From a virus, in IMG/VR virus record IMGVR_UViG_3300031746_000001: a stretch of 64,000 bases of DNA; one strand, 5' to 3'. This document shows, in pieces, positions 2,377-36,100 of the stretch (position 1 is its first letter; every line of letters begins with the position of its first letter). Under the pieces are notes generated by a model. The model was given only the letters and a program-made list of their open reading frames with translations, was not told the DNA's origin and did no database searches. Position numbers and translations under genes: made by a program.

Positions 2377-2597
2377 TTCAATGAGTATCCCCAGCAGATC
2401 GTCTTGCCGACCCTCCCGCAGACCGAGCACGTGTCGGTCGACGGAAATGCTCTAAGGGGCTTCCCGACGATATCCGTCTCGTAGTCCTTGCTCCACTGGT
2501 GGAGGTTAGAACACTGATAAGTTACTTCGAGCCGCCTCTTCGTAAGCTCAACTCTTTCATGAGCTTTATGTCTGCTGGCGCCAGCAGTCGGGCTCAA
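2373..2597 (-). CDS. Zn-ribbon protein (TTG start inferred)
   Basis: YQCSNLH...CSVCG; TTG overlaps stop of the clamp-like gene. Confidence 0.5.
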   Translation of the reverse strand: MSPTAGASRHKAHERVELTKRRLEVTYQCSNLHQWSKDYETDIVGKPLRAFPSTDTCSVCGRVGKTICWGYSLK

Positions 2598-3259
2598 ATT
2601 GGGTCCGATCCCGGCACCCGGACCGGCATCAAGATGCACAGTGCATCGATGGCGTCGTTCTTCCTCACTCCGGACGGAAGCAAGGTCACCTGAGTAAGAG
2701 ACGACGAGTTGTCTACGCAAAGCTTAATGTTGTCGGACCCGATGTGCTGGCACATCTCCATCAGATACTTGGCGTTGAAACAGACGGAGACAGGAATGGT
2801 CTTGGCCTTCGCCGTGATATCGGCGACGCTCGGATAGGCAGGCTCGTAGGCCAGGGGAACCTGCAGGGAACGTCCGTTCATCGAGATGCTGAGGCTCGGC
2901 TTCCGCTCCTTCAGGTCCACATCGGGATCCCCCAGGTTGAAGGTGATATCCGCAGACTCCAACCCGACGACGGAACGCTCGAGAAAGTCCACGATCCTGA
3001 TGGCGTCCCGGTAGTTCAAAAGAACCTCCGGCATCTCCTCGCCCTCCACGCCAACCTTGACGAGGTCGAGCTCTAAGGAAACGAACTGGTGGCCGTTGGT
3101 CGCCACGAAGCCGATCTTATCCTTCGCTCCCCTGATCCGGATGCTCTTCAGGTTGTCCCGGCCCGTGTCGGGATCCCGTATCGTGGCGTAGGTCGTCATC
3201 CCGAGAACGTCCTTCAGGATTCCCTTCCACATCGACATCTTAACTAATCTGTCTGGCAT
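2594..3259 (-). CDS. DNA polymerase III beta-clamp-like protein (two domains only)
   Basis: FVATNGHQ (ATDGHRL), YP linker, FNAKYL and terminal ILMPVR motifs typical of DnaN domains II-III. Confidence 0.75.
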   Translation of the reverse strand: MPDRLVKMSMWKGILKDVLGMTTYATIRDPDTGRDNLKSIRIRGAKDKIGFVATNGHQFVSLELDLVKVGVEGEEMPEVLLNYRDAIRIVDFLERSVVGLESADITFNLGDPDVDLKERKPSLSISMNGRSLQVPLAYEPAYPSVADITAKAKTIPVSVCFNAKYLMEMCQHIGSDNIKLCVDNSSSLTQVTLLPSGVRKNDAIDALCILMPVRVPGSDPI

Positions 3260-3538: not shown

Positions 3539-3898
3539 TCACAGCCCTCCCTGGACCCCAAACTTTTCCTCCTCTACAGCAGTCTCCCCGGCAATATCCT
3601 TCCATGTGAACCGATCCATCTTCAGGCATAAGTCGAATACCCCCATCGAGAAGTCCCTGGTCAAATTCATGACATTCGAGAACTGGTAGCCCGCCACGGC
3701 CCCGTCGAATCCGATCTCATGCAGGTAGGCCACCTGCTCCTCCCGAGAGAAGCCGTCATAGTTCCCGTTCGCGAAGATAAATGAGAGTCCGGGATGCCCG
3801 GCGCCGATGTCATACTCTTCGTAGGCCACGCCCCGGGTCCCTGCCGGACACCCGAGCATCCCTTCAACCTTCAAGGTCACCACAGACCCGACTCTCAT
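3539..3898 (-). CDS. SH3-like small protein with FGVxGxL C-terminal tail
   Basis: MRVGSVV...GTRGV beta pattern; ends EEEKFGVQGGL. Confidence 0.7.
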   Translation of the reverse strand: MRVGSVVTLKVEGMLGCPAGTRGVAYEEYDIGAGHPGLSFIFANGNYDGFSREEQVAYLHEIGFDGAVAGYQFSNVMNLTRDFSMGVFDLCLKMDRFTWKDIAGETAVEEEKFGVQGGL

Positions 3899-4086
3899 CT
3901 ACTCCTCACGACGACCGGATCGACCCGGTTCAATTCGATAAAGGTATTCAGATCGGCCATATCGAACATCGTCCTCCGGCCTGCCTTGACGTAGGCAATC
4001 TTCTTCAGGCAGACCCACTTGTAGAGGGTCTGCTTCTTGAGGCCGAGATACTCAGCGGCCTCCGAAACGTTCAGCAGTCTCTTCAT
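3895..4086 (-). CDS. excisionase-type (MerR/HTH_17) DNA-binding protein
   Basis: LLNVSEAAEYLGLKKQTLYKW...GRRTMF. Confidence 0.85.
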   Translation of the reverse strand: MKRLLNVSEAAEYLGLKKQTLYKWVCLKKIAYVKAGRRTMFDMADLNTFIELNRVDPVVVRSR

Positions 4087-4201
4087 ATCAGCGTGGCGCG
4101 GTGGGTTGGGCGATCAGCCCCAAGCCTTCGTTCATCCAACCCGCTTAGGCAGGAGGGGAGAAACGGGTCCCTCCACGCCAGATCGCGCTCGCCACGCTGA
4201 A

Positions 4202-4414
4202 TCATTTCACTATGCCGTTGCACACCCCAGACCCGTCCGGTTTTCTGTGAGCCCACACCCGGCCACGCTTCTGCTCGGCCTGCCCTCCGCACTTCGGGCA
4301 CACGACCCGGACGGGAGCCACGGGCGCTGGCCTTCCGAAGAACCGCCTCTGCATCCAGGAGTTCATCCCCCGGCTGATCCGCTGGAGCTCGGCCCGATTC
4401 TGATCCGTAATCAT
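4202..4414 (-). CDS. small Zn-ribbon protein
   Basis: VCPKCG...HRKPDGSGVC. Confidence 0.5.
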   Translation of the reverse strand: MITDQNRAELQRISRGMNSWMQRRFFGRPAPVAPVRVVCPKCGGQAEQKRGRVWAHRKPDGSGVCNGIVK

Positions 4415-5247
4415 CACGCCCTCTTCCCGTTCGGGGGAACGACTTCCACCTTCAAGGTCTTGGGAACGCTGTTCGTGAAGCCTCCCTGGTGGTCTACGAA
4501 TATCCCGGTCGTGGTCGGACGCTGTTCCTTGACCACGACCTTCGTCCCCCACTCCGTCCGGCAGACCGTCTCCGGCTCGAGCGTCCCGATCTCCGGGCCT
4601 TCAAAGGACGGCTTGATTATCTTGACCTGCACTTGAGGAGACTTGACCGGCGCGTCATCTGCCGGGGCAGTTCCAGGACAGACCTCTGCGGCTGGAACTT
4701 CAGCCTCCTGCGCCTCTCCCTGCGTCTGCGGGGCAACGGACTTCAGCGGGGCATCTCCATCGGGGGGCTCCGCAGACTCCGGCCCTGCATCACGACGGGA
4801 GCTTTCGGATTGACCCCCGCCGCTGGATCCCCCCTTTAGAACTCTCCACACCTTCCCCCTCGAGACCCCGAGCTCGTTGGCGATCTGCAAGTGGGTCTTC
4901 CCGTCGTCCCTGAGCTGAACGATCCGGGCGGCCACACCCGAAACAGGAACGGTCGCCTCGGGCTCCGAGACCGGCTCGCCCGCAGGGACAGACTTCTCCT
5001 CTGCTGGCGCCTTCGGCTTCTGGACCTCCGTAGCGACCTTCTTTTTCTTCTCCCCCGGCTTGTCGTCGACGAACATCTCGAGGGGAGAGACTTCGTCCAT
5101 CCGCTTCCAAACCCTGGCTCCCCTGCCCGTCCCCTTCAGAAGCCTGACCTGATAGGGCTTGGATAGCTTCGGCATGACCTTCACGATCCTGGCCTTCTTC
5201 TTGTTGACCAGAACGAGGTCACCCTCACTGAACAGTTTCCGTTCCAC
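4414..5247 (-). CDS. SH3-like + HTH protein with low-complexity linkers
   Basis: FSEGDLVLV N-terminus; LQIANELGVSRGKVWRVLK HTH; GTG start inferred. Confidence 0.7.
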   Translation of the reverse strand: MERKLFSEGDLVLVNKKKARIVKVMPKLSKPYQVRLLKGTGRGARVWKRMDEVSPLEMFVDDKPGEKKKKVATEVQKPKAPAEEKSVPAGEPVSEPEATVPVSGVAARIVQLRDDGKTHLQIANELGVSRGKVWRVLKGGSSGGGQSESSRRDAGPESAEPPDGDAPLKSVAPQTQGEAQEAEVPAAEVCPGTAPADDAPVKSPQVQVKIIKPSFEGPEIGTLEPETVCRTEWGTKVVVKEQRPTTTGIFVDHQGGFTNSVPKTLKVEVVPPNGKRA

Positions 5248-5851
5248 TCTCCGCTCCTCTCTCTTGGGGTAGTTCATACTTCCTATTCCAAGCCGCCTCC
5301 CGTTTCTTTGCGGCATCCTCTAACTGCACTCCAATCTGCAGGATGAGCTCATCGATTTCCTTCCGGTCGTTCTGGATCCAACTGAGAGTCTCATCGACCC
5401 GGGATGTCGCCCGTCTTTCTTCAATCCGATACTTCCAGATCGTCCTCCGAACCCTACCCGGACGGGGCCGACTGAAGTCCTCCCCCACCTGATGCCCCCG
5501 GATGTGATCGAACTCGTGAAGCATCGTCTTGAACATGACCTCAGCCGACTGCAGAGGGTCGGCTCCCTGATACTCCTTCACCTTCAGCTCGACCCAGCCC
5601 CCGTTCGTCGGGATCCACGTGATCGGGTAGCTCGGGGTCGGCCTTCCCTGCTTGTCCTTCTTCGTCCTCGGATCGAGGTGGTGAAGGTTGACGCCGATCG
5701 CTCCATATACACAGCTCTTGGTGAAGAGACCCCCTCGGGTTGCCTTCACCACAACCGATCCGTGACACCCCATGAGCTTCCCCGCAGACACCAGAAGGCT
5801 CCGCAGGGGCTCGTCGGGGATGCCGGATCGGTTGTAAAGTTTGATGGTCAT
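5225..5851 (-). CDS. putative zincin metallopeptidase
   Basis: HEFDH (HExxH); first gene after promoter P2, AAGGAG SD. Confidence 0.6.
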   Translation of the reverse strand: MTIKLYNRSGIPDEPLRSLLVSAGKLMGCHGSVVVKATRGGLFTKSCVYGAIGVNLHHLDPRTKKDKQGRPTPSYPITWIPTNGGWVELKVKEYQGADPLQSAEVMFKTMLHEFDHIRGHQVGEDFSRPRPGRVRRTIWKYRIEERRATSRVDETLSWIQNDRKEIDELILQIGVQLEDAAKKREAAWNRKYELPQERGAESGTETVQ

Positions 5852-5905
5852 GACGCTCTCCTTTACTTGGGGTTAAAAGAGATACCGCATCCTTACTACA
5901 CACCC

Positions 5906-5934
5906 ATTATACATTATCCGAAAGTAACAGTCAA
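5906..5934 (-). promoter_or_regulatory. sigma70 promoter P2 (TTGACT-17-TATAAT)
   Basis: Near-consensus hexamers, 17-bp spacer, AT-rich UP-like tract. Confidence 0.85.
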
Positions 5935-5963
5935 GGGCTTTGAAGGAAAATCTTAAAATTCTT

Positions 5964-6191
5964 TTAGCCGCCCGGACGGTCCTTGTGCTCGACCACCTCT
6001 TCAGCCCCGCAGACGTCCTTGAGCCACTGCGAAGCCTCTTCCTGCGTGGCAAACTTCCCCCAGCCCACTTCCTCTCCCGCATCCCCGATCTGGCTCCCGT
6101 CCCAGGGCTTGTCTCCCCGCAGGAGATGCACCCGGCCAACGCAACGTCCTTCGTAGAAGCCCTCCAACAGAATGACCTGTCGATCATCCAT
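5964..6191 (-). CDS. hypothetical protein
   Basis: GAGGAGG SD before MDDRQ. Confidence 0.5.
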   Translation of the reverse strand: MDDRQVILLEGFYEGRCVGRVHLLRGDKPWDGSQIGDAGEEVGWGKFATQEEASQWLKDVCGAEEVVEHKDRPGG

Positions 6192-6939
6192 CTTGTCCTC
6201 CTCTCGCCTTCTTGCATCCTGGCCAGTGAAAACTCTCTTCACCGACCGCCATGTCCGTGAAATACCACGTCCCGTTCTTCCCCCTGCAGAAGTCAAAGCT
6301 CCAGTAGCCCTTCCCCATCGCCACCCCGAGACGCCGGGCGTATTCCTTGAGCTTCTTCAGCTCCTTCAATCCGATTTTCTGCATCTCATCGAGAATCTTC
6401 TCCCAGAGTTCGGGGGGACGGTCCGGATGGAGATCGAACTCATCTTCCGGAAGGACTGGCCGTTCAATAGACTCCGGAGGCCAGTAGGGATGCTCGCATA
6501 CTACCCTCGTCCCGTTCACGAACAGCCTCCGCTCCACTGCGATCGGCATCTCCCCCCAGAAGGCCGTGAACCTGGCATCGAGATCCAAGAACTTCCGGAT
6601 AGCCACGCCCTCAAAGGAGACGTCGACCGCAAGGCTGAAGTCGAGAAGTTTAAAGATACGAGCGGGGATCTGTTCGATGCTCTCCACATAACAGCTCTTT
6701 TTCCACTCATGCTTGTTGCTGACCCTATCGCTCCGCAGGAAGAGCGGAAACCCTATCTCCGGAGCCCTCCTCTGGACCTCCCGGCGCAGAGCGTCGAAGG
6801 TCTTGTTCTTTCCCCCGTCGAGGGCCTTGATAATACCCCTCGGGTCCCGGCAGGGAATTAAAATCGTCTTGGGCATGGGGATCGATAGCTCCTCGACCCG
6901 GGGCCACCAGTAGAGCATGCTGTTGGGATTACTGCTCAC
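6184..6939 (-). CDS. ATP-grasp fold protein
   Basis: PMPKT, FPLFLRSD...KH, ERRLFV, WSFDF...WYFTD motifs. Confidence 0.65.
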   Translation of the reverse strand: MSSNPNSMLYWWPRVEELSIPMPKTILIPCRDPRGIIKALDGGKNKTFDALRREVQRRAPEIGFPLFLRSDRVSNKHEWKKSCYVESIEQIPARIFKLLDFSLAVDVSFEGVAIRKFLDLDARFTAFWGEMPIAVERRLFVNGTRVVCEHPYWPPESIERPVLPEDEFDLHPDRPPELWEKILDEMQKIGLKELKKLKEYARRLGVAMGKGYWSFDFCRGKNGTWYFTDMAVGEESFHWPGCKKARGGQDG

Positions 6940-7118
6940 TGCTTCGCCTTCGCCAACCCCTCGTCCTGCTCGCAGGAAATGCACTGCGTTCCCTGGCCTC
7001 CGGGGATGCACTCCTCCACGCACCCGGGCTGGTGGCAGACATAGCACTCCACAATCTGCTTGGTCGGTTCACCACACTGCGGACACTTCTTTTTCTCGAC
7101 TGCTTGCTCTTCGGCCAT
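6936..7118 (-). CDS. Cys-rich Zn-finger protein
   Basis: Four Cys pairs in 60 aa. Confidence 0.55.
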   Translation of the reverse strand: MAEEQAVEKKKCPQCGEPTKQIVECYVCHQPGCVEECIPGGQGTQCISCEQDEGLAKAKQ

Positions 7119-7133
7119 TGCTCCATCCTCCCC

Positions 7134-7460
7134 TTAGAAAATCTGCTCCGTTAAAAGCTTGGCGCCTTCCTTCCGGTAGTCATCGATGCTGACCACCTCC
7201 ACCTTACGACCTGCGATCGCCTTCTTCACTGCGTCCTCCGATCCCCACCAGCACTCGCATCCGTAGACGACCTTCCCGTCATCGAGCTTGATCTTGGGGT
7301 TCGTGTTGCCGGGACAGAGATCGATGTAACGACGCCCCAGCATGATCACTTCCTTCGGCGGGATCTCCTCCCCTTCATAGACCCCGTATCCGAAAAGGTA
7401 AACCGTCGTCTCGTCTGCCGAGGATACCGCTCCAACCCGCTCTCCAATCTTATGTCCCAC
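7134..7460 (-). CDS. conserved-looking phage hypothetical protein
   Basis: FGYGVY...NPKIKLDDG..VYGCECWWG. Confidence 0.7.
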   Translation of the reverse strand: MGHKIGERVGAVSSADETTVYLFGYGVYEGEEIPPKEVIMLGRRYIDLCPGNTNPKIKLDDGKVVYGCECWWGSEDAVKKAIAGRKVEVVSIDDYRKEGAKLLTEQIF

Positions 7461-7461
7461 T

Positions 7462-7917
7462 TCAAATTTCTCCTTCTACAGTGATCACTTCGGAACCCGA
7501 AGGGTCTATGGACGAGCACTTGAGTTCATAAATAGGTTCCTCCTTCACGCCCACCTGGACATACTGGCACTTCTCGCCCTTGAAAAATCCCAAGACCTTA
7601 ACATCCCCACAGTCCCAAGTCCGGCGTTTGATCTCAGCATAATCCTCCGGACGTTTGGTTTTCTGTCGATAGCCCTTCTGAGCCAAGAACCGAAGCAGTG
7701 GAGATATTTCCATCATGTGGTCAAGATCACAGTGAACAAGAATCCCGTTCACCTGCCCCCACATCCATCCCACACTGATCGACTGGATAAGGTCCGGAAA
7801 GACGAGCTTCGCCCCTAGCGCCACGTTCGCGGCGGGAACGAGCCCCTCGAGATAGGCAACCTTAGTCTTAACTATCTGTATTTCGGCCAGGATAAAATCC
7901 GGCGTCAAATTATGCAT
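7462..7917 (-). CDS. hypothetical protein
   Basis: Coupled ORF with lower GC. Confidence 0.6.
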   Translation of the reverse strand: MHNLTPDFILAEIQIVKTKVAYLEGLVPAANVALGAKLVFPDLIQSISVGWMWGQVNGILVHCDLDHMMEISPLLRFLAQKGYRQKTKRPEDYAEIKRRTWDCGDVKVLGFFKGEKCQYVQVGVKEEPIYELKCSSIDPSGSEVITVEGEI

Positions 7918-8215
7918 GGCTCATCCCAGCGGGGCACAGCCCCCCAAGAGACTTCGTCTTGGGAGGCTCCCCGGGTTTGAGATTGTGGTTCGGGCACGTG
8001 GGCTCCGGGCAGGGATAGTTCCCTTCCCACAGGATCGTCGTGCAGTAGGGGCAAAAATACAGGGCGACGGGAAGCCTCCCGAAAGTTATGTTGTCCCGGA
8101 AGTAATTCCGGGTCGCCTCCCCGCTCAGGGGATCGATCCCCTGCTTCTCAAAGAACTGCTTCCAGGTGATCACCTTCGGAAGTGCGGATACATCCTGGGT
8201 ATTAAAGTTAATCAC
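7910..8215 (-). CDS. Zn-binding hypothetical protein
   Basis: CPYC...CPEPTC; GAGGAGG SD. Confidence 0.55.
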   Translation of the reverse strand: MINFNTQDVSALPKVITWKQFFEKQGIDPLSGEATRNYFRDNITFGRLPVALYFCPYCTTILWEGNYPCPEPTCPNHNLKPGEPPKTKSLGGLCPAGMSHA

Positions 8216-8234
8216 TTCTCCCTCCTCTTATTTC

Positions 8235-8381
8235 TCATCCAAGCCTCCCTCTTCTTCGATCATTCTTCCCGAACACCACCACGCAGGACGGGAACGGAGC
8301 CCGCTTCCTCTTGTTGTCGTTGAAGCAGAGCCGGCCCTTGATAAACCTGATCTCCTGAGCCTTCATGACGTACCGATGCCA
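8235..8381 (-). pseudogene. displaced original 3-prime end of the Dam-type methyltransferase gene
   Basis: Translates WHRYVMKAQEIRFIKGRLCFNDNKRKRAPFPSCVVVFGK..., paralogous to the C-terminus of 8838..9248. Confidence 0.85.
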
Positions 8382-8815
8382 CGCTTTGCTTCCCTTAGCC
8401 TAAGATAAAACCGTCTCCTACGCAACACCAATTTTGGATCGGTTCTATTCCGACCACCTCGAGCCAAGGGAAGCTTCATAAAATTCAAAGCAATATCTGC
8501 CTCCTTCGCCTTCGTTCGTAAATATGGCCTTAAAATTAAAAGAACATTTTTTGCGTCTTGGCTCGAGCAAACCCATGACCATCCCGGATTCCATCTCTCA
8601 TTTCTCGGACTATACTTCCCAACATGACCCACTCCAAATTTCTTCCACGCATATTTAACCACTCGCTCATCACACATCGACAATTTAGTAATCAAGGAAT
8701 AAAGATCACTTACATGTCCTCCACGGCCATTAGATCTGTTAAAGCGAATATGTATACACCCCTCCCCGTCAAACAGACCAGCTAAATAAGCCTTTTCCAT
8801 CTCCGTCATTTTCAT
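8363..8815 (-). CDS. LAGLIDADG homing endonuclease (single motif)
   Basis: AYLAGLFDGEGCI; LRPYLRTK; AT-rich. Confidence 0.9.
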   Translation of the reverse strand: MKMTEMEKAYLAGLFDGEGCIHIRFNRSNGRGGHVSDLYSLITKLSMCDERVVKYAWKKFGVGHVGKYSPRNERWNPGWSWVCSSQDAKNVLLILRPYLRTKAKEADIALNFMKLPLARGGRNRTDPKLVLRRRRFYLRLREAKRGIGTS

Positions 8816-8837
8816 CTTTCCTTAGTTAGTGATGCCA

Positions 8838-9248
8838 CTATTGTAACACATCACTACGTCCAAATACAACTACCATTGATGGGAATGGAGCTCTTCCCTT
8901 TGCGTCATTAAATCTAAGCCTTCCCTTGATAAATATTATCTCCCTGGCGTGATGTAAAATATAACGGTGAAACCATATCGTATCCGTCCTCGAGGGCAGG
9001 AGCATCACCACGAGCTTCCCGGCCTGGCCCTCCTGGTACGCCCTTGCGATCCACTTCCCGATCTCCTTGCCGTAGGGAGGGTTGACGTAGGTCCGGGATC
9101 CCCACGGCCGCTCCAAGCCTCCCGTTCCGTGCAGAGGGCAGGGATCGTCGTTGAAGCTGAACCGAGCGTCGAGCTCGCTATAGATCAACGCCGGGGTCGC
9201 CCAATGCGTGGTCGTCGTGCGGGACGTGTGCATGGCCTTCATGATCAT
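8838..9248 (-). CDS. phage DNA N6-adenine methyltransferase (Dam-type)
   Basis: WATP, DPC, VNPPYG, LLPSRTDT.WFH, GRLRF, APFPS. Confidence 0.9.
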   Translation of the reverse strand: MIMKAMHTSRTTTTHWATPALIYSELDARFSFNDDPCPLHGTGGLERPWGSRTYVNPPYGKEIGKWIARAYQEGQAGKLVVMLLPSRTDTIWFHRYILHHAREIIFIKGRLRFNDAKGRAPFPSMVVVFGRSDVLQ

Positions 9249-9252
9249 GGGA

Positions 9253-9513
9253 TTACCAAGCGGCCGGATACTGGGTAAACGCCCCGGGCATGTAATGCAC
9301 GGACCCGCTCTTCAGCACAGCCTGGATCGCCACCTCCACAGGGAACTTCGCGCCATAGGCTTTGATGAGTTCAATGTCGTCCTCCTCGTCCCCTCCGGGC
9401 ACCACTCCGATATACGCCTTCAATTGATTCGTGATCTCGTCGAGCGCGACGACGATACCGAAATGCTCAGTGGACGTCGTAAACCAAGCTACCCCTGCAG
9501 TTTTAATCGACAT
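9253..9513 (-). CDS. hypothetical protein
   Basis: GAGGGGAG SD; KAYIG...EEDD..I...GAKFP. Confidence 0.65.
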   Translation of the reverse strand: MSIKTAGVAWFTTSTEHFGIVVALDEITNQLKAYIGVVPGGDEEDDIELIKAYGAKFPVEVAIQAVLKSGSVHYMPGAFTQYPAAW

Positions 9514-9525
9514 CTCCCCTCCTAT

Positions 9526-10362
9526 TTAAGAAGGAAACTCCCGCACCCTGAATTCCTCCGGCCACTCATCCGGGTTTCCTCCCTTCCGATCCTTGCATCC
9601 CCACGCCCTAGCCAGAACCTCTCCGGCCTGCTTCATAAAGAACGGGACCCCAGCCGCCTTGCATTGGTCGAGGATCGACCTTATCCACGAGGGGTTCGTC
9701 ATTCGGGCCCCTGGACCCGACTCTCCCCCCACGATCACCCAATCGAGAGTTAAAAGCCGAGTGCCAAACGTTTTCTTAAAATAGGGCTCACAAGGAATCC
9801 CGTCTAGGGTAGTCCGTCGCTCGCACGACAGATATTCCGTTAAGTCCATCTCGCTAAGCATGGGCTCAATGCTCACCCCGTGGACGGCCGCTGGGATCTG
9901 CAGGAGAAGCGGGATCCGTTCATACGCCCGCTTCTGATTCTCCGCCGTCACGATCATCTGGACGTTCGGGAGAGGCCAGTTCTTCGACTCCCAGGTATTG
10001 AAGAACTCGAGGGCCCGCTCCGGCCTCTTGGTGAGAACCTGGAAGGTGTGTTGCTTGGCGAAGGTCATCCGGGCGAAGCAGTCACAGATAAACTTGAACG
10101 GCACCTGCGGATGAAAGAGATCGCCCATCGAGCAGACGAATATCCTTCTCGGCCTCTTCCACTTGAGGGGGATATCAAGCCTCTCCGGATGGATGACGAC
10201 ATTCTTCCCGGCATTCGCTTCGGTCCAGGGATGCTTCGTGTAGCCGTAGCGGAGAGAGTCCCGCTCGGCGTAGCAGTGCTCGCAAGCCTCGGATATTTTG
10301 GAACATCCCGAGACCCAATTCAGCGTGGCGTCCGTCCATTCGATTCCGGTTCTATCTCCCAT
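9526..10362 (-). CDS. phage Gp37/Gp68 (DUF5131) family protein
   Basis: TGIEWTD, GCSKISEACEHCYA, SMGDLFH, LTKRP, WVIVGGESG, FFMKQ. Confidence 0.9.
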   Translation of the reverse strand: MGDRTGIEWTDATLNWVSGCSKISEACEHCYAERDSLRYGYTKHPWTEANAGKNVVIHPERLDIPLKWKRPRRIFVCSMGDLFHPQVPFKFICDCFARMTFAKQHTFQVLTKRPERALEFFNTWESKNWPLPNVQMIVTAENQKRAYERIPLLLQIPAAVHGVSIEPMLSEMDLTEYLSCERRTTLDGIPCEPYFKKTFGTRLLTLDWVIVGGESGPGARMTNPSWIRSILDQCKAAGVPFFMKQAGEVLARAWGCKDRKGGNPDEWPEEFRVREFPS

Positions 10363-10693
10363 GTATGGATTCCTCCAATTCCTGTTTCTTGACAAAGTAT
10401 TCTTCCGGCGACAGAAGCTTCAAGGCCGACGGCTCCTTCTTCCAGATCTCGTTAAAGTCATCCTCCGAAAGCCTCCACAGAAGCGGAGACCTGTGACCGG
10501 AGCAGTCCAGCTTCTTTTCCTTCGAGATGAAATGCCTCACTGCAACGGCGTCCGCCTCATCGTCGGTATCCCCGAACATGGAGAACTTCACTTCGACACG
10601 TTCCCACTTCCGGCCCCTTGAATCGGCGCTCGTAACCCCGATCACATGGCCCCAGAGATTATGGCAGAGCACATAAGCCGTAAGATAAACCAT
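10352..10693 (-). CDS. hypothetical protein
   Basis: GAGGAG SD. Confidence 0.55.
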   Translation of the reverse strand: MVYLTAYVLCHNLWGHVIGVTSADSRGRKWERVEVKFSMFGDTDDEADAVAVRHFISKEKKLDCSGHRSPLLWRLSEDDFNEIWKKEPSALKLLSPEEYFVKKQELEESIHGR

Positions 10694-10701
10694 GTCTCCT
10701 C

Positions 10702-10926
10702 CTATAAAGACCCGATCACCCCGAAGGCTTCCTCCCGAAAAATTTCCACCTGATCATACCAGAATAACTTTTCCGAGGGGTAGTTATCGAGCTTGATCCA
10801 GACGAGCCCGGATTCTGCCTGATCGGTAACGTATCCTAATTCCCCCAGAAACTTCACATCTCGTTCCCCATTAACTCTCACAATCCGAACCCGTGGGCGT
10901 CGATCAAAGTGATTTCCGAATATCAT
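10702..10926 (-). CDS. SH3-like small protein with FGVxGxL tail
   Basis: RVRIV...GELGYV...VWIKLD; ends EEAFGVIGSL. Confidence 0.7.
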   Translation of the reverse strand: MIFGNHFDRRPRVRIVRVNGERDVKFLGELGYVTDQAESGLVWIKLDNYPSEKLFWYDQVEIFREEAFGVIGSL

Positions 10927-11189
10927 ATCTCGCCCTCCACTCCGAAGGGCTTCTCCTCTTCCTTCTCGAGCTGAACCTCCTCGAGGTATCTTCCAGCCCC
11001 CTTCTTGGCTTTCCCCGAGCAGTCGTGCAGGCCGAGAGACTCCTTGTCCATCTGGACCCCGTAGAGAAAATCGCTGGCCTTAACTTCCACGATCGTCCCG
11101 GCCTCATTGAGCAACCCTTCTTCTTCCTGCGTATGCTCCCAAGTCACCCTGACCCGCTGGCCGACCTTGAACTTCGGCTTCGAACTCAC
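10923..11189 (-). CDS. SH3-like small protein with FGVxGxI tail
   Basis: FKVGQRVRV...GTIVEV...YGVQMD...LHDCSG; GTG start overlaps upstream TGA; ends EEEKPFGVEGEI. Confidence 0.75.
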   Translation of the reverse strand: MSSKPKFKVGQRVRVTWEHTQEEEGLLNEAGTIVEVKASDFLYGVQMDKESLGLHDCSGKAKKGAGRYLEEVQLEKEEEKPFGVEGEI

Positions 11190-11599
11190 AGCTCCCCGAT
11201 CACTCCGAAGCCCTCCTCGTTCAGGGACGGTTTCCGAGAACGCCTTTGCTTTTCCTTCCGGGTGACCATCTGGACGGCGGCCATCGCTAGAGTCCTTACC
11301 GTGTTCCGATAATGCGCCCGGGTCACCTGATCGGATGGGTAGTAAACGGGATGATCGGACACGAGCTTGAGCTGAGACCTCCCAAGCCACAGACCACGAT
11401 CCGGAAGGCAACACCCATCACAGGTATTCAGATCCCGATGTCTCTTGTTGAACTGGACGGCGTAAGCCCCGGCATGTCCGGCCCCCTTAACGACCCCCCG
11501 AGTCCCGACCAGGAAACTATAATCGGACTGGGAATGGATCTGAAGGACTTCGACGTGGTCGCCAACCCTTAATTTCTTTCGCTGATAAATCCTAGCCAT
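11186..11599 (-). CDS. SH3-like small protein with FGVxGxL tail
   Basis: LRVGDHVEV...GTRGVV...YAVQF...LNTCDG; ends EEGFGVIGEL. Confidence 0.75.
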   Translation of the reverse strand: MARIYQRKKLRVGDHVEVLQIHSQSDYSFLVGTRGVVKGAGHAGAYAVQFNKRHRDLNTCDGCCLPDRGLWLGRSQLKLVSDHPVYYPSDQVTRAHYRNTVRTLAMAAVQMVTRKEKQRRSRKPSLNEEGFGVIGEL

Positions 11600-11707
11600 A
11601 ATAAATCTTCCTCATGAGGTTATGGGGTGAATTCCCTATCGAGAGGGACATCCACCCCATCACACCACAACCGACTCCTTTGTAAAGAACATCCATCAGA
11701 GGTTAAC

Positions 11708-11736
11708 ATTATAGCGGATTCCAAAGTAATTGTCAA
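11708..11736 (-). promoter_or_regulatory. sigma70 promoter P3 (TTGACA-17-TATAAT)
   Basis: Perfect consensus. Confidence 0.9.
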
Positions 11737-11747
11737 GAGGGTTCATT

Positions 11748-11786
11748 AAAAAGTTACCCTGGCGAATCCCGCTGGACCCGCCAGGG
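11748..11786 (-). terminator. intrinsic terminator
   Basis: CCCTGGCG/CGCCAGGG stem followed by TAACTTTTT on the minus strand, just upstream of P3. Confidence 0.55.
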
Positions 11787-11792
11787 CTTCCT

Positions 11793-12119
11793 TCATAGAA
11801 CTATTCTGTTCTCGTTGCCCCGGGTCGGGGGAGGCCGCCTGCACTTCCCGTTGGACCGATCCGGGAGACTGACCATCACGAAGGGCATGGCCACTTCAAT
11901 CAGGATGACCACCACGATCATTAGGCCCCAAGCCCACAGACCGCCCCCGATCACGGAAGCCACGCCCCCCAGACTCAGTAAAATAAGCCTCCCCCAGTCC
12001 CACGCCCTGAGCACCCGCTGGGTAGAGGCGTTTACCCCCCTTTTGAGCCTCCTGTAAGCCCACAGGCGGGCGACCGTCAGGAGCAGGATGGAACCCCCCA
12101 CCAGAACGAGCGTAAGCAC
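11793..12119 (-). CDS. small membrane protein (about 3 TM)
   Basis: Three hydrophobic stretches; AAGGAGG SD. Confidence 0.65.
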   Translation of the reverse strand: MLTLVLVGGSILLLTVARLWAYRRLKRGVNASTQRVLRAWDWGRLILLSLGGVASVIGGGLWAWGLMIVVVILIEVAMPFVMVSLPDRSNGKCRRPPPTRGNENRIVL

Positions 12120-12132
12120 CTACAGCCTCCTT

Positions 12133-12345
12133 TCAGCCCTCAACGGGCTCCCCGGATTGATCCCGGGCGGCTCTCCGAGCAATCTCCACAGACTTGGCCA
12201 CCCCAGAGAAGAGCTTGCCCTTGCTGTCCCGGTAGTCCCACTGCACCATCCTCCGGCCTGAGAACTTCGAGACGAACTCATCGTAGGCGAACTGACCGGG
12301 GGTCTTGGTCGTCGAGCATCCCTGAGAATCGTTCAGCCCCATCAC
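12133..12345 (-). CDS. hypothetical protein
   Basis: QWDYRD..GKLFSGVA motif; SD present. Confidence 0.6.
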   Translation of the reverse strand: MMGLNDSQGCSTTKTPGQFAYDEFVSKFSGRRMVQWDYRDSKGKLFSGVAKSVEIARRAARDQSGEPVEG

Positions 12346-12352
12346 ATCCTCC

Positions 12353-12580
12353 CTAATCTTTCACGTCGAGTGAGTCCCACGCCATGCTTACTTTATTCTC
12401 CGCATCTCTCAAGGCGATCCTGGCGTGTTCGAGGTGCTTACGCCAGTCCTTCTCGTGCTCGACGTAAGCCTTCCACGCCTCTCCCACTCTCCGAGAAGCT
12501 TCTCCGGATAGCCGGGAAACTTCTTCGTCAAGCCGCCAGAGGGCGTCCTTCACTTCCTGTCGTTTTTGTTCTCTCGCCAT
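12353..12580 (-). CDS. coiled-coil hypothetical protein
   Basis: AAGGAG SD; helical heptads. Confidence 0.55.
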   Translation of the reverse strand: MAREQKRQEVKDALWRLDEEVSRLSGEASRRVGEAWKAYVEHEKDWRKHLEHARIALRDAENKVSMAWDSLDVKD

Positions 12581-12602
12581 CGCATCTCCTTCAGACCGGG
12601 TA

Positions 12603-12680
12603 TTGGGGTTAGATCGCATGGCAGGACTTTGGACCTGCCTCGTGCCTTAAGTGCGGGGATGACCCCGCACCCCATCGGCT
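12603..12680 (-). ncRNA. putative structured leader RNA, copy A
   Basis: GTGCGGGG/CCCCGCAC and GCAGG/CCTGC stems then AACCCCAA; shared with copy B. Confidence 0.5.
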
Positions 12681-13077
12681 ATAGACCTTTGGCTGTGACC
12701 TTGCCGCCCTTCAGCTTGGCTTCCGCCCGAGCTTTCATGTCGGCATCGATCTGGACCTTCGGATCGGTCTTGGGCTTGGCATCCGGAGCGACATCAGCCG
12801 GGGCACGCACGGCTGGCTTCTCGGCCTTCGGATTGGCCTCCGGCTTCTTGGCTTCGGCCTTCGCTTTCGGTTGGGCCTTCGGAGCGGCCGCCTTCGGAGC
12901 GGCCTTCTTGGATCCCGGCTTGGCCACGTGCCCGCCCTTCTTGAAAGCCTTCATGATTCGCCACACCATGCCTCTCGAGATCTTCAGGTCCCGAACGATC
13001 TGGGAATCCTTCTTGCCCTCCTTGTGCAGGGCGATCACCCGATCACGGTATGCGTCTGCGGACTTCTTATTTGACAT
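12679..13077 (-). CDS. HTH DNA-binding protein with Pro/Ala/Lys-rich histone-H1-like tail
   Basis: SQIVRDLKISRGMVWRIMK followed by KAAPKA-type repeats. Confidence 0.7.
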   Translation of the reverse strand: MSNKKSADAYRDRVIALHKEGKKDSQIVRDLKISRGMVWRIMKAFKKGGHVAKPGSKKAAPKAAAPKAQPKAKAEAKKPEANPKAEKPAVRAPADVAPDAKPKTDPKVQIDADMKARAEAKLKGGKVTAKGL

Positions 13078-13113
13078 TCTGATTCACCTCCCATCATTCA
13101 CTTAGATTTAAAT

Positions 13114-13350
13114 TCACCCGATTCGTAGAGTAGCGATGATTATTATTTTATCCCCAGGATACACTTTCTTCCTTCTGGTTCTCCGCTTTCCGTTCACGTG
13201 AATTCGTAACCACTTCGTCGTGGATATTCTCGCGGCTAGGAAAACCTGTCCAACAGATTCACCACTGGATGGAACGAGCACAATCTTAGGCACGTGACCA
13301 AGACGGTAAATTATGACACGCCCCCATTCTTTCTTTTTCATATTCTCCAC
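13114..13350 (-). CDS. ubiquitin-like (ThiS/MoaD beta-grasp) protein, putative
   Basis: SVGQVF...IHVNG...VYPGDKIIII...RIG-stop pattern. Confidence 0.5.
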   Translation of the reverse strand: MENMKKKEWGRVIIYRLGHVPKIVLVPSSGESVGQVFLAARISTTKWLRIHVNGKRRTRRKKVYPGDKIIIIATLRIG

Positions 13351-13365
13351 GTCTCTCCTTTTGAT

Positions 13366-13487
13366 TTGGGGTTCGCCTGCAGGTTACTTGGGATATCCTG
13401 CGTGGCCTTAGTGCGGGGGTGGACTCTGCGTCATGGTGTCGGATACGCACACCGTCTTGCGAGGTCGCACCCCGCACCCCTCGGCTC
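13366..13487 (-). ncRNA. putative structured leader RNA, copy B
   Basis: Same two stems and AACCCCAA as copy A, with an expanded loop. Confidence 0.5.
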
Positions 13488-13913
13488 TCAGGCTACGACA
13501 ACCGTCCCCTGAATGGCCTTGACCTTGAGCTTCTTCCCGGCCTTGACCTTGAGCTCCGGCTTCTCGCTGTGACTCGTCGAAGCCGCCAGGGAAGTGGTCA
13601 GGATGATCTGCGTGGCCTCGTTGACCTTCGTGAGGGCGAGCTCGAAGGCGTCCTTATACTTGGGCGTATCCCGTGGCGTGATCGATGCCACGATCGTGAC
13701 CTCACCAACCGCCACTTCCTGGTTGGGATAGGCCATTACCTGATGGACGGTCTCGCCCCGGAACCCCTCTTCGATTTCTCCGAGCCGCTTCAGTTCGGCG
13801 TTCAGATTGCTGATGTTGGCTTTCACGGTCATCCACTCCTTGAGCGATGCCCTCAAATTGCCCTCAGCCTGAACGGGCGGCTGAATGTTGATACCGACAT
13901 CGTTCTGCTTCAT
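13488..13913 (-). CDS. hypothetical protein with N-terminal coiled coil
   Basis: Start after AAGGAG. Confidence 0.6.
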   Translation of the reverse strand: MKQNDVGINIQPPVQAEGNLRASLKEWMTVKANISNLNAELKRLGEIEEGFRGETVHQVMAYPNQEVAVGEVTIVASITPRDTPKYKDAFELALTKVNEATQIILTTSLAASTSHSEKPELKVKAGKKLKVKAIQGTVVVA

Positions 13914-13917
13914 GGCT

Positions 13918-14235
13918 TCATACTCCTTTCGTTCCGAACTCTGCATCGAGCTCCCGGACCGCCCGCTGGGATCCCGGCAGGTATCCGAACTGACCGTAGA
14001 AGGCATCCCGGAAGAGGGACATCGCCAGGGCGCTCGAGATCCGCCCGTGATCCGTCCCGTCGAACATGAGATGACCGCCCTTCACTGCGATGACCCCGTT
14101 GTAGGGCTCCTGCCCCCCGAACTCCTTGTGGGCGCCAGGGGAAGTCACGAACAGCCTGATCTCTTCGCCCTCAAGCGTCTCGAGAAGCCTCGGGGCCATC
14201 CATCTCGTAAAGTCCTTCGCTGTCTTCGGGGTCAT
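13918..14235 (-). CDS. hypothetical protein
   Basis: GAGGAG SD; ends EFGTKGV. Confidence 0.6.
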   Translation of the reverse strand: MTPKTAKDFTRWMAPRLLETLEGEEIRLFVTSPGAHKEFGGQEPYNGVIAVKGGHLMFDGTDHGRISSALAMSLFRDAFYGQFGYLPGSQRAVRELDAEFGTKGV

Positions 14236-14237
14236 GG

Positions 14238-14540
14238 CTAGCTCCTCTCTTCGCCAACGTGGATTTTGAAAGCCTTGCGGGATTTCTTCGGGGGCTTGAT
14301 GCTGGCGAGGATGGCCGGATAGATCGAATCGTTGATCCCGACATTCGGCGGAAGATGAACCGCCACGCTCATGGGCGCCCGCTTTCCGTCCTTCCTGGCT
14401 TCCCAGATAAAAACCACCGGAGCCTTGCCTTCGTCGAGCATCTCTCCCCGGCCTCTGAAAATGTCCAGGCCGGAATCGATGCCGCTCCGAAAGTCGTAAC
14501 CCACGATGGTCTGCGTCCTGCTGATCTTCACTTCTGACAT
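14238..14540 (-). CDS. hypothetical protein
   Basis: First gene after P4, AGGAGG SD. Confidence 0.65.
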   Translation of the reverse strand: MSEVKISRTQTIVGYDFRSGIDSGLDIFRGRGEMLDEGKAPVVFIWEARKDGKRAPMSVAVHLPPNVGINDSIYPAILASIKPPKKSRKAFKIHVGEERS

Positions 14541-14591
14541 CTTGCTCTCCTCCTACTTGGGGTTAGGGGATTACCTGCTTACCACGATACC

Positions 14592-14620
14592 ATTATACCT
14601 AATTCGTAATTGACAGTCAA
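14592..14620 (-). promoter_or_regulatory. sigma70 promoter P4 (TTGACT-17-TATAAT)
   Basis: Near consensus; -35 lies within the palindrome TTGACAGTCAA. Confidence 0.85.
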
Positions 14621-14725
14621 GGGCTTTGCCGAGAATTCTTTAAAATCTTTTCCTCATAGGGTATGTTCGTTCACTATCTTTCAAGGGCGTAGGAACCATG
14701 ACCCACGCCCCTGCGGATCGTAGCC

Positions 14726-15050
14726 TCACAAGCCCCCCACGACGCCGAACGGTGCGTCATCATCGGTAGGGACGGGCGATTGGGCATCCGGCCTTCGAGC
14801 TCGCACCGTAGGCCGGGGTGTAGGCCGACGCTCCGTCCTTTCCATCTCCCTCCGTAGGGACGTGCAGGGACGGATATCCCCGACCACGTGCCAGAAGCCC
14901 CGGGCATCATGCCTTGAGATCGTCCACCTCGTAACGAGCGCCTTCCGTCCGGAGGCCGTTCGGGAACTGAACCCAGCCATCCCTGCCCTGCGGTCGCACC
15001 CGCAGTTTCCGTTTCGACGGATCGTAGACGACTTCTAAGATTACGCTCAT
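14726..15050 (-). pseudogene. frameshifted small beta-barrel gene with FGVxGxL tail
   Basis: MSVILEV...KLRVR...VQFP...GARYEVDDLK stops at 14907; the +1 frame continues HDARGFWHVVGDIRP...DDDAPFGVVGGL. Confidence 0.55.
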
Positions 15051-15054
15051 GGCA

Positions 15055-15831
15055 TTACCTTAGATGGACGACCTTCGTCCGGGATCCGTCACGACCGACC
15101 ACGAAGTAGATCCCGCTGTGCTCCATCTGATCGACCCGGCGGCCCAGCAGGTCGTAAATCCCCGGCCTCAAGCCGCTGACGTGGACCGCGCTCTTAGGCT
15201 TCGCTGGGCCCTCCTCCACCCCGTTGAGCGTGAACGTCCCAGTAAGGTAAGCATCGTCCACGAAGAGGGTGTCAAAACGGGCTGTAATTTGGCATCCGAG
15301 AGTTATCGAGCTCAGCGTATCCCTCACCCGGAAGGAATCTCCTGCGGCCAGGGTAATGGTCATTAAGTCCCTATCTAGGGTATGCCAAAGCGTGTCGAAG
15401 CCTGGGATGGTGTCCCGTCGGTTCACCCTCCACGTCGTGATCCCTCCGCTATCCGCACAGAACCCCCGCACCCAGGTATACGAGGACAAGGTTATCCCCG
15501 CAGTCCAAGGCATCTTCTTGACCTTCACGTTGAGATGAACCCGATACGTTCCCGGCCCATGCACTGCGGGCACTCCCAAGATGTTCTTCGTCTGAGAAAG
15601 GTTAGAGGTTATCCCCTGAAGCATGAGGCTGTGGCTTGGCGAGACGAACCGGAGCGAGTCCGCCTTAATCAGGTAAGGGTAGCTTCCGCCCCAAACCTTC
15701 CAACCCCAAACGTACCTCACGCCGTTGTAGACGTAGGTGCTCTCCATGTCGGCGAACGTCGTGAGGGTGTCTGCCGCGAAAGCGGTTGCGCTCATCACGA
15801 GCACTGCGATCACTAACAGGAACTTCTTCAT
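15055..15831 (-). CDS. secreted protein with T9SS/Por-type C-terminal sorting domain
   Basis: Signal peptide MKKFLLVIAVLVMSATAFA; beta-sandwich body; GVEE linker then IYDLLGRRV...GIYFV...KV. Confidence 0.7.
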   Translation of the reverse strand: MKKFLLVIAVLVMSATAFAADTLTTFADMESTYVYNGVRYVWGWKVWGGSYPYLIKADSLRFVSPSHSLMLQGITSNLSQTKNILGVPAVHGPGTYRVHLNVKVKKMPWTAGITLSSYTWVRGFCADSGGITTWRVNRRDTIPGFDTLWHTLDRDLMTITLAAGDSFRVRDTLSSITLGCQITARFDTLFVDDAYLTGTFTLNGVEEGPAKPKSAVHVSGLRPGIYDLLGRRVDQMEHSGIYFVVGRDGSRTKVVHLR

Positions 15832-16112
15832 GACTGATTCTCCTCTTTTAGAATTTGCTCTACAGTTCGATCCTTGACTATCTTCGGGTCCCCGTAGGGA
15901 ATTCCGGTACGCCATTCCTTCTCAACGGTCTCTGCGGCTTTAATGAGAGCCACGTCCGTGACGGACCCACGTTCGCCTTGAATCTGGACCTCCGCCATGA
16001 GATTATCCATCGCCAGGCCGATAGCTTCCCCCGTCACGTCCTTCCCCTCCTCCACTTCGAGAGCAACGCAAACCTTGTATTCGAAGGTCACGCAAAACAG
16101 TTTGGTCATCAT
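15828..16112 (-). CDS. hypothetical protein
   Basis: AAGGAGG SD, coupled. Confidence 0.6.
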   Translation of the reverse strand: MMTKLFCVTFEYKVCVALEVEEGKDVTGEAIGLAMDNLMAEVQIQGERGSVTDVALIKAAETVEKEWRTGIPYGDPKIVKDRTVEQILKEENQS

Positions 16113-33111: not shown

Positions 33112-36100
33112 TTAGAGATATTCAACCAAAATCGTTCCATTCCAGTTCTCATTACGCTTGTCAGAAAATGAATAAGTGGTCGAAAAGACCGATTGCACGG
33201 AACCATTCTTGTGAACTTCAAGAACGGTATCCGACATCCCGACATAATTGATATAACAAGATATTTCATCCCCCTCAACAAAGTAGACGGGAGCGACATT
33301 CTTTATCGCTGTCGTTTCCCCGGTAGTAGACCCCCTGAACTGGCATCCGATAATCCTACCCGGAGAAAGCATCTGAACTGAATACTGATTTCCCACTTCA
33401 GTTCCGGCAGAGAAGTATCTACTTGACACACTCGCCGCAGTTCCAAGAGATAAGTGGTCTATGTTCTTTAGACCGTGTGCTCCAACAACCCCAATCCAAT
33501 CAAAGCTGATTCCTACGACAGTATCGCCCGAGAACACATGAACAGGCAACCAGACATTCGCTGGAATATGAGTCGTATGCGAAGCAACCAACTGACCATT
33601 GACATATAGACGACAGACATTTGGGTCCCATTGAATTTCAATCAGATTCCAAGTTCTGGCCGGGATAGCAACGGCTGTCTGTGTTACCGTCCCGTCGTAA
33701 GTTTCAAAGTTTCCGTCGTTATACCGGACATAATAGGATCCGCCGGAATCCCAAAAACCAACAGCGTTTCTGAACACACCAGACCTATCATAATCATCCT
33801 TAACGAACATAGACAATCTACCATACAGCCATGTTCTCTTCGTATACATCTCGCCATAAGAACCTCCGGCGTTCAGAATACTTATCATACTGGACGCAAC
33901 AGAATAGGTTGCACTTGCACCAACCTTAGTCCAGACATTCGTATCAAGGGCATTACCATCAAAATGGTCGATAAAACCCGGAAATCCTTCATAACTAATT
34001 ACCGGAGTTTCTATCGGAGCAATTTCAGAGAACTCAATGTCTGGATGTAGTCTTGTAGCAATATTATCAAGCAACACACCATAATACCCACCCATCGCAG
34101 TAGCATAGGCGGCAGTCGTTCCCCTCCAATAAAATTTCCCGTCACAATAAACATCGAACACATTAACTTTACTTCCGAGACTATTATACAAATAAACTTC
34201 AAGAGTATGCCATTCCCCTGTAGTCAATGTGACTGTAAAGACGCCATCTGTCAAACTACCATAACTTCCGGCATTATCATATCCTACCGTTAGATTAGCT
34301 CCCGACCCTGTGTAATACCAGAATAATCCATGAGCGGTAGCATGATTAAGAGCATCAAACCCAAAACATATCCCGTAGTTATCCGTAGAAGCATTCGGCT
34401 TGAACTTCATCCGAATACGAAGTCCACCGGATGCATTTGCATTGAGAGGAGCCTGACAAAGATAGAATCTTTCACCGGCTGTTCTCGCTACAGGAGCATA
34501 CCATCCGGCAGTATCACTTACCAGATACTCCGCATTTGTGTAGTTTCTATACAAAGCAGGAGAAGGATAACCACTATATCCCGACGCCCCACTGGCACCA
34601 GAGGCCCCTGAGGCGCCTGAAGCACCAGAAAGTCCAGATGCCCCCGTGAACCCACTGAATCCGGAGTACCCTGATAGGCCACTTGCCCCGCTAGCTCCAC
34701 TGGCGCCTGAAGCTCCTCCTGCTCCGGACAGCCCGCTGAAGCCGGATCGTCCGCTGTATCCTGAGTACCCCGACTGACCACTAGCGCCTGAAGCTCCTCC
34801 TGCTCCGGACAGCCCGGAGGCACCCGTGAATCCCGAGAAGCCAGAATATCCAGAGAGTCCGGAAGCTCCACTTGCTCCCGAAAGTCCGGATGCGCCAGTA
34901 GCCCCGGTAAATCCAGAGAAGCCGGAGTAACCTGAAAGACCAGACGCCCCGCTGGCGCCACTCGCTCCGCTGGCTCCCGAAAGCCCTGTAAATCCCGAGA
35001 ACCCGGAATATCCACTTAGACCTGAAGCACCAGACGCACCGCTCGCGCCGGAAGCCCCGCTGAGTCCTGTGAACCCACTGAAACCCGAGTAGCCGCTTAG
35101 TCCGGATGCACCACTTGCGCCTGAAAGTCCCGAAGCCCCTGAAGCTCCGGACAGGCCACTGGCTCCGGTGAAGCCGGAGAAACCCGAGTAACCGGAGAGG
35201 CCAGATGCCCCAGACGCTCCACTAGCCCCACTCGCTCCTGACAAGCCCGTGAACCCGCTGAAGCCGGAGTAACCCGATTGGCCACTAGCTCCGCTCGCCC
35301 CACTAGCCCCGCTGAGACCTGATGCCCCAGTAAATCCCGAAAAGCCGCTATAACCTGACAGTCCACTTGCCCCGGACGCGCCGGAAAGTCCGCTGGCCCC
35401 ACTGGCTCCCGTAAATCCGCTGAAACCTGAGTAGCCACTTTGTCCGGAGGCTCCCGACGCTCCGCTGGCACCGGAAAGACCGGAAGCTCCGCTGGCACCG
35501 GAAAACCCGCTGAGACCGCTATACCCAGACTGACCGGATGCTCCGCTCGCACCACTGGCTCCGCTAAGACCCGAGGCTCCGGACAGCCCTGTGAAGCCGG
35601 AAAATCCCGAGTAGCCGGAAAGTCCAGACGCCCCACTGGCACCGCTGAGCCCAGAGGCTCCCGAAGCTCCGGTGAAACCAGAGAATCCAGAGTACCCGCT
35701 CTGACCGCTGGCTCCACTCGCTCCCGAAGCCCCACTGAGTCCGGAAGCACCAGTGAAGCCAGAAAATCCGGAATATCCGGATTGTCCGCTGGCCCCGCTT
35801 GCTCCCGATGCCCCACTAAGCCCAGAGGCGCCGGTAAAACCACTGAACCCGGAGTACCCGCTTAATCCGCTGGCTCCCGATGCTCCTGAGAGTCCCGATG
35901 CTCCCGATGCGCCTGAGGCGCCAGAGAGTCCAGAAAAGCCAGAGAGTCCGCTATAGCCTGATTGTCCAACAGCCCCGGACGCTCCGCTCGCGCCGGACGC
36001 TCCCGAGAGTCCGGTAAAGCCGCTGAAGCCCGAGTAACCGGATTGGCCGCTGGCGCCGGATGCTCCCGAGGCTCCTGAGAGGCCACTAGCCCCAGTGAAT

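Follow-up and report, generated by a model that had tools for sequence, protein, structure and literature searches.

Five proteins encoded in a 64,000-nucleotide stretch of viral DNA (IMG/VR record IMGVR_UViG_3300031746_000001; the whole stretch is called the window below) end in the same short peptide, and this tail is probably a lineage-specific, non-covalent docking tag that is read by one hub. The tail stands at a fixed distance from the stop codon, is under selection as a peptide, is confined to non-virion genes and recurs in an array of genes behind an operon for a ubiquitin-like protein (Ubl) with E2, JAB and E1 proteins; we infer the binding and the single hub. The window belongs to a metagenomic contig of 159,907 bp with nearly all genes on the minus strand, and baseplate-type genes read on its DNA mark a contractile-tail phage. 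Genome-wide counts were taken from G001, a complete sister phage of 160,139 bp that is 75-98% identical across most of the window.

A sequence-only reading of the window had placed the heptamer FGVxGx[LI] at the ends of five genes and a weaker variant at the end of another. These genes and one further probable carrier are:

3539..3898, minus strand: protein of 119 amino acids (aa) with an SH3-like N-terminal part; tail at 3542-3562, retained by orthologues.
7462..7917, minus strand: 151-aa protein with a probable sixth tail at 7465-7485; this end also holds the Shine-Dalgarno (SD) sequence of the next gene and is less certain.
10702..10926, minus strand: probable SH3/KOW barrel of 74 aa; tail at 10705-10725, with the SD sequence of the next gene after the stop codon.
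10923..11189, minus strand: 88-aa protein, an SH3/KOW barrel in residues 1-76 and a free tail at 10926-10946.
11186..11599, minus strand: 137-aa protein, an SH3/KOW barrel with a linker of variable length (175 aa in the sister phage); tail at 11189-11209.
13918..14235, minus strand: the weak variant of the sequence-only reading, not a member.
14726..15050, minus strand: broken hybrid of the 5' part of a DNA-ligase gene and the 3' part of a tagged 107-aa duplicate; tail at 14729-14749.

All five heptamers were found at the places reported, and a stop codon comes immediately after each of them, so that the tail is indeed the last seven residues of each protein (P = 2.7e-8 for five of five). Across the six frames of the 64 kb, the pattern FG[VIT]xGx[LIV] matched the five tails and nothing else, and 200 codon shuffles gave a mean of 0.01 matches. 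The motif is real and had been drawn too narrowly; the true motif is broader and probably takes in the end of 7462-7917. This end scores 8.6 bits on the tail profile, on which the best untagged gene end of G001 reaches 7.4 (itself a probable tail) and the next -0.7. The proposed variant EFGTKGV at 13918-14235 falls outside the family, with a profile score of -10.6, an orthologue that is one residue longer and an overlapping AAAGGAG SD sequence. A perfect sigma-70 promoter lies at 11736-11708, and 11186..11599 is the first gene downstream of it. The 3539 protein had no match in INPHARED.

Beyond the window, the tail is a feature of this lineage. A DNA pattern for the tail retrieved, besides chance matches, one IMG/VR record, that of G001, in which the strict pattern occurs nine times forward, with no reverse and no control match. 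Under a relaxed definition 20 of the 227 predicted genes of G001 (9%) are tagged, and a 21st is likely; the shorter pattern [VIL]xGx[LI]$ fits 18 gene ends (0.5-0.7 expected; P ~3e-21). In the window's own contig, tails were seen at five genes and the probable sixth in the window and at nine genes in locus L033. The general form is [FI]-x-[VIL]-x-G-x-[LI]-COOH behind an acidic patch. Counted from the C-terminus, the consensus has E at -9, F/I at -7, V/I/L at -5 (20 of 20), I/R/V at -4, G at -3 (18 of 20), G/S/A/Y/E/P at -2 and L/I at -1 (20 of 20). Glu replaces Gly at -3 in three tails (two among the 20, and a third variant), and the residue at -2 is small in 14 of the 20 and Tyr, Glu or Pro in six. 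Internal 10-mers of the proteome score 10.9 at best, compared with 13.5-25.8 for the tails, which are in-sample; because no internal 10-mer reaches the score of any tail, the motif appears to be wanted only at a free C-terminus. The virion block of G001 (37.8-113 kb) contains no tagged gene, and none of its named enzymes is tagged.

Scans of viral DNA and protein and of GTDB found the tail in no other lineage, and our literature search, mostly of open-access papers, found none that describes it. Two operon-adjacent barrels were rejected as carriers, one ending I-G-E-I (L035, with an E1 that is 52% identical) and one ending I-G-G-N (L093); their ends overlap SD sequences and score near 0.

Purifying selection acts on the peptide. 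Among 14 orthologue pairs, tail identity between the sisters is 95/98, compared with 75% for the bodies, and synonymous and replacement changes number 14:3 in the tails and 224:320 in the bodies (p=0.0009). The tail was retained where the linker just upstream was rewritten between the sisters, and it is kept in homologues from sister phages. Codon positions 1, 2 and 3 carry 0.77, 1.23 and 0.41 bits of information, and the five tails of the window differ at synonymous positions as the sequence-only reading had described. Its view of variable bodies joined to a common terminal peptide under protein-level selection is supported by these results. A free C-terminus at a fixed distance is, we infer, the behaviour of docking peptides. 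As causes at the nucleic acid level, cUUCGg hairpins and a DNA repeat were dismissed after codon inspection. A prfB-type +1 frameshift site has the slippery last codon CUU-U before UGA and an SD sequence 3 nt upstream; the last codons of the tails are CTA, CTG, ATC, TTA, TTG, ATA, ATT and CTC, none of which re-pairs in +1, and this candidate was also rejected.

The bodies had been described as SH3/KOW-like barrels, which is true of many, and the family is wider. One SH3/KOW-like family accounts for 9-10 of the 20 carriers by hidden Markov model, six of them being seeds. The other carriers are two ABA-sandwich paralogues, two probable membrane proteins (hydrophobic 19-mers of 1.8-2.4), a ligase-domain duplicate, and acidic or disordered proteins. 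The model of the 10923 protein is a confident five-stranded SH3-like barrel (predicted local distance difference test, pLDDT, 89), in which the tail is modelled without secondary structure and with less confidence. This protein matches the NusG KOW domain (E 7.5e-4), Spt5 KOW (Z 8.8; root-mean-square deviation 1.6, 59 aligned) and, tied with the latter, CAP-Gly (8.7), and the barrel is equally close to NusG/Spt5 KOW, CAP-Gly, PsaE and Mind-bomb repeats. Because of these ties we name the fold, and no subfamily or function. The SH3/KOW assignment comes from homology for 11186 and, weakly, for 10702; the SH3-like fold of 3539 comes from an Atlas model of residues 1-63. Among the 150 best barrel relatives, 141 do not have the tail and the nine tailed ones all come from this clade; because tailed relatives are confined to it, the tail appears to have been added to the barrel in this clade.

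The fifth gene of the window has a hybrid origin. Counterparts of its two source genes stand in succession in the sister phage: a DNA-ligase-like gene of 386 aa and, behind it, a 107-aa second copy of the ligase N-terminal domain, to which the tail is appended. In the window a 1.16-kb deletion fuses the ligase gene to the duplicate, one base out of frame near 14912. Both genes are whole in the sister phage, as they are in a further assembly of the same population, and the break in 14726-15050 would be either a strain variant or an assembly error (a real deletion or a collapsed repeat). Through the deletion, the ATP-dependent DNA ligase gene is gone from the window assembly (window 14907-15050). 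The sister phage also has an IS110/Nop-like gene and an intergenic stretch between two tagged genes (L028:5833-6792 and upstream of 7462; G001 125833-127460), which are absent from the window.

Proteins of ubiquitin-like pathways are encoded close to many of the tagged genes. In the window's contig, 4.4-12 kb beyond base 1 and in the direction of transcription, lie genes for a Ubl of 78 aa, an E2-like coiled-coil protein of 489 aa, a Prok-JAB protein and a ThiF/E1 protein, and nine tagged genes stand directly behind the E1 gene, with overlaps of 1 or 4 bases at eight of nine junctions. The sister phage has the identical order within one unit, which is bounded by perfect sigma-70 promoters and has no strong promoter inside. 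Catalytic residues are intact: His-Pro-His and Cys420 in E2, Glu36/His97/His99/Asp110 in JAB, and the Gly motif and Cys185 in E1. The window's own tail carriers lie 8-20 kb from this operon. The operon Ubl of G001 (L028:19182-19421) has one extra Asp after its terminal Gly, which implies trimming by JAB; that of the window phage has no extra residue. Two further proteins of the window bear on the choice of a hub:

2594..3259, minus strand: beta-clamp-like protein, a disfavoured hub candidate.
13114..13350, minus strand: predicted second ubiquitin-like protein of 78 aa, ending L-R-I-G, as the operon Ubl ends L-R-L-G.

The second of these is encoded far from the operon, and the G001 gene list holds no counterpart at that place. 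Variation was also seen around the operon and its relatives. An endonuclease VII-type gene lies between JAB and E1 in the window phage (L033:9594-10013) and is absent from G001 and from one population variant. At its N-terminus the E2-like protein carries a beta-alpha-beta-beta-alpha module of 46 residues (L020:18656-18793) that was missed by the gene caller; this module was found in this clade and L035 only and is a candidate tail reader. Elsewhere, L044, L049, L060 and L110 each have two to four paralogous E2-like genes near a single E1, and in L085, L087, L088 and L094:11286-15250 the E2-like module lies inside 1300-aa proteins downstream of E1. In another phage (L104:4255-10034), the Ubl operon is surrounded by 7-8 small genes with a common start, M-I-[TE]-I-[DENA].

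A docking peptide needs a partner, and several features of the tail would suit a single one. Three hydrophobic anchors (-7, -5 and -1), a turn at -3/-2 (usually with Gly), the free C-terminus and the acidic patch could fit one pocket of the hub, to which about 20 non-structural proteins would bring their differing bodies, mostly SH3/KOW barrels and also ABA-sandwich, membrane and disordered proteins. The best candidate for the hub, a tentative one, is the phage Ubl-E2-JAB-E1 machinery, with the tagged proteins as interchangeable E3-like substrate adaptors; a different protein of the host or the phage has about the same probability. It is possible, though less likely than not, that the tagged proteins are an adaptor library (less likely linear conjugation cargo) for the phage ubiquitin-like pathway. 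The variable barrel of each adaptor would select a host or phage target, and the tail would plug this target into the E1/E2/JAB core. Bil operons have no E3 (PMC11601596), a gap that such adaptors would fill, and a modular E3 layer of this sort has not been described in prokaryotes or their viruses.

Besides the position of the nine genes, a loose likeness of the tail to Ubl ends is consistent with this candidate. In some 110 related loci the Ubl ends P-x-[IV]-x-G-[GNA], mostly with 0 or 1 extra residue. On a profile built from 98 Ubl ends of the family, the tails score -1.7 and other gene ends -11.2, the best fit being with a one-residue extension (p=3e-10), and the diverged Ubl ends of the phage itself score about as high. 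Of 79 viral E1 loci, 8 have related barrels nearby, compared with 0 of 53 random viral loci. In another phage (L116:117-4646), five small genes share the C-terminal E-[ED]-x-x-F-W; several of them are SH3-like, and three lie between JAB and E1.

Other observations weigh against the Ubl machinery as the partner. Eleven of the 20 tagged genes, including all of those in the window, lie outside the operon, and the adjacency to E1 is the product of one tandem-array event, noticed after the fact. The likeness to Ubls rests on 2-3 positions and is post hoc; typical Ubls have a median of ~14 on the Ubl-end profile, far above the tails, and the tail is unlike the L-R-[LI]-G ends of the phage's own Ubls. 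The enrichment of barrels at E1 loci may reflect a shared location in the early region. The operon works without the tail: neither ~160 loci that have a related E1 nor 25 complete viral records of this kind showed an enrichment of it, it is absent from the 25 other phages with the operon, and a stop-anchored search across E1 loci recovered its positive control and nothing comparable elsewhere. The tail is carried by one very small clade. 

When a tailed fragment of 36 aa was modelled together with E2, JAB and E1, the scores were 0.29 and 0.11 (mark 0.32), which count neither for nor against this partner; the AlphaFold prediction for the E2-like protein was of too low quality to use (pLDDT 40). 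We found no description of adaptor arrays beside phage Ubl operons in the literature searched, mostly open-access papers. Among the G001 proteins scanned with Pfam, PHROG, NCBIfam and PADLOC (top 25 families listed), no obvious hub such as a PDZ, TPR, vWA or MoxR protein was seen.

Gene ends can also be shaped by the translation signals of the next gene, and the tail could be a by-product of SD sequences in coupled gene ends that was spread through gene duplication. Twelve of the 20 tails abut the next start, their anti-SD pairing is 0.9 kcal stronger than after synonymous recoding (p ~0.04), F-G-V-I can be spelled close to an extended SD sequence, and two of the Glu variants read AGG GAG. Against this, eight tails are uncoupled and equally conserved, Gly at -3 with Leu/Ile at -1 occurs in only one of the 78 untagged genes that are coupled, such genes have the 0.9 kcal excess as well, third codon positions vary freely, and the bodies come from several unrelated families. 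The sequence-only reading had noted that two of the ends overlap no downstream SD sequence, which was borne out for those at 10702 and 14726, and translational coupling fails to explain the tail; this origin is largely refuted and very improbable. The clamp-like protein at 2594-3259, which had been proposed as a hub, is disfavoured, and a clamp-binding tail is scarcely more than a slim chance. The gene is present, and T4 gp43, gp33 and gp55 have interchangeable acidic-hydrophobic C-termini on a flexible linker (PMC2988020), but no replication enzyme is tagged (the RecA, SSB, DnaB, primase, ligase, PolX-like and methyltransferase genes all end without the tail) and two tagged proteins look membrane-bound. 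No replicative polymerase was identified in the G001 gene list. Equally hard to sustain is a peptide that loads proteins into the phage capsid or a host encapsulin, which we consider highly improbable. Several tails do end in four residues identical to the [IV]-G-S-L core found in the targeting peptides of encapsulins (PMC10960027), yet the full motif, L-x-[IV]-G-S-L-[KR], has an upstream Leu anchor and a basic residue at its end that the tail lacks, and the Ile anchor is Arg, Gln or Glu in 8 of 20. Capsid packaging, another hub proposed earlier, is likewise disfavoured, since no gene of the virion block has the tail, two carriers are probable membrane proteins by their hydrophobic 19-mers (1.8-2.4), and ~20 late genes behind the capsid gene bear an N-terminal tag of their own.

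Removal of early proteins could instead be timed by such a tail, as a degron or adaptor-binding peptide for a host AAA+ or tail-specific protease. C-terminal degrons are established, for example ssrA, and the exact terminal position, the non-polar end, the restriction to non-virion genes and the indifference to the body all agree with one. To our knowledge, however, the tail matches no known degron; no cellular protein family with the consensus end was found in 185,579 genomes (one pattern; its 118 matches were chance or antisense), and the tagged run behind E1 would be left unexplained. We regard this reading as unlikely. About the same holds for a covalent tag, modelled on the handling of the CD-NTase tail by Cap2 and Cap3, in which JAB would trim the last one or two residues, E1 would adenylate the new end and E2 would ligate the tagged protein to a target. 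The position behind E1 and Gly at -3 in 18 of 20 tails agree with it, as does the register, which is that of the pro-Ubls of the family (commonest extension one residue, 39 of 98), and Cap2 works on a disordered tail without a ubiquitin fold (10.1101/2022.03.31.486616). However, the last residue is always Leu or Ile and the length is fixed, unlike the unconserved pro-extensions of Bil, which reach nine residues (PMC10557695), and in no tail is Gly the bare last residue. Glu stands at -3 in three tails, and -2 is occupied by Tyr, Glu or Pro in six; a Gly-to-Glu change abolishes cGAS conjugation in CBASS (antiphage signaling based on cyclic oligonucleotides), and Gly-to-Leu abolishes BilA conjugation (10.1101/2023.09.04.556158). 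The phage also already owns two Ubls with a different end. A conjugated tail is thus improbable, and non-covalent docking to one hub is the preferred reading.

These phages carry other features of note. In G001 the major capsid gene is followed by some 20 small genes (44534-58304, L024; and 35201-35903) that share the N-terminal M-x-x-L-L-x-[AS]-[VIL], an amphipathic helix that is likely a capsid-targeting sequence for internal head proteins, and hence a second tag system in the same phage. The C-terminus of a signal-peptide protein at window 15055-15915 has no Pfam or NCBIfam match and resembles what we take to be a type IX secretion system (T9SS)/FlgD-type sorting domain, which may point to a host of the Fibrobacterota-Chlorobiota-Bacteroidota (FCB) group.

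Most small early genes of phages have no assigned function, and the tail groups twenty of them into one testable process, in which a single 10-residue bait could reveal the common partner. If the partner is the phage Ubl machinery, the tagged proteins would form a modular adaptor layer and answer how bacterial and phage E1/E2 systems that have no E3 choose their targets. If it is a host protein, the tag marks a host hub that is addressed twenty times by one phage. The phage and its host are uncultured, and the clade is small.

Eukaryotic modular E3 adaptors, such as F-box and SOCS-box proteins, pair a variable recognition domain with a small common motif that serves the ligase core. We propose the same architecture for the tagged proteins, as an analogy only, with no homology expected. 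Among prokaryotic systems, type II CBASS likewise has a disordered C-terminal peptide on a non-ubiquitin body beside E1, E2 and JAB activities (10.1101/2022.03.31.486616); it has one host-encoded substrate ending in Gly/Ala, whereas here there are many phage-encoded carriers ending in Leu/Ile and a separate Ubl. BilABCD has the gene set Ubl, E2, JAB and E1 (PMC10557695; 10.1101/2023.09.04.556158), and the Ubl of the sister phage resembles pro-BilA in having one residue after the Gly. Bil is a bacterial defence whose E1 is of the IAD-AAD-CYS form and which has neither an E3 nor an array of adaptors, in contrast to this operon, which is in a phage and encodes a ThiF of 234 aa and an HPH..C E2 with a coiled coil. 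The targeting peptides of family 1 encapsulins (PMC10960027) are also short C-terminal peptides with hydrophobic anchors and an [IV]-G-S-L core, but the tail described here has another anchor spacing, no basic residue after the Leu, and membrane proteins among its carriers. We did not find the motif, its scale or its place behind a phage Ubl operon in print; the principle of a shared C-terminal tail that is read by one partner is known from T4. In T4 and RB69, gp43, gp33 and gp55 are unrelated phage proteins that likewise end in a short acidic-hydrophobic peptide behind a variable linker, and their tails are interchangeable and bind one hub, the sliding clamp (PMC2988020). The system described here differs in its sequence and in having about 20 uncharacterised carriers, compared with three characterised ones, that are not replication or transcription enzymes.

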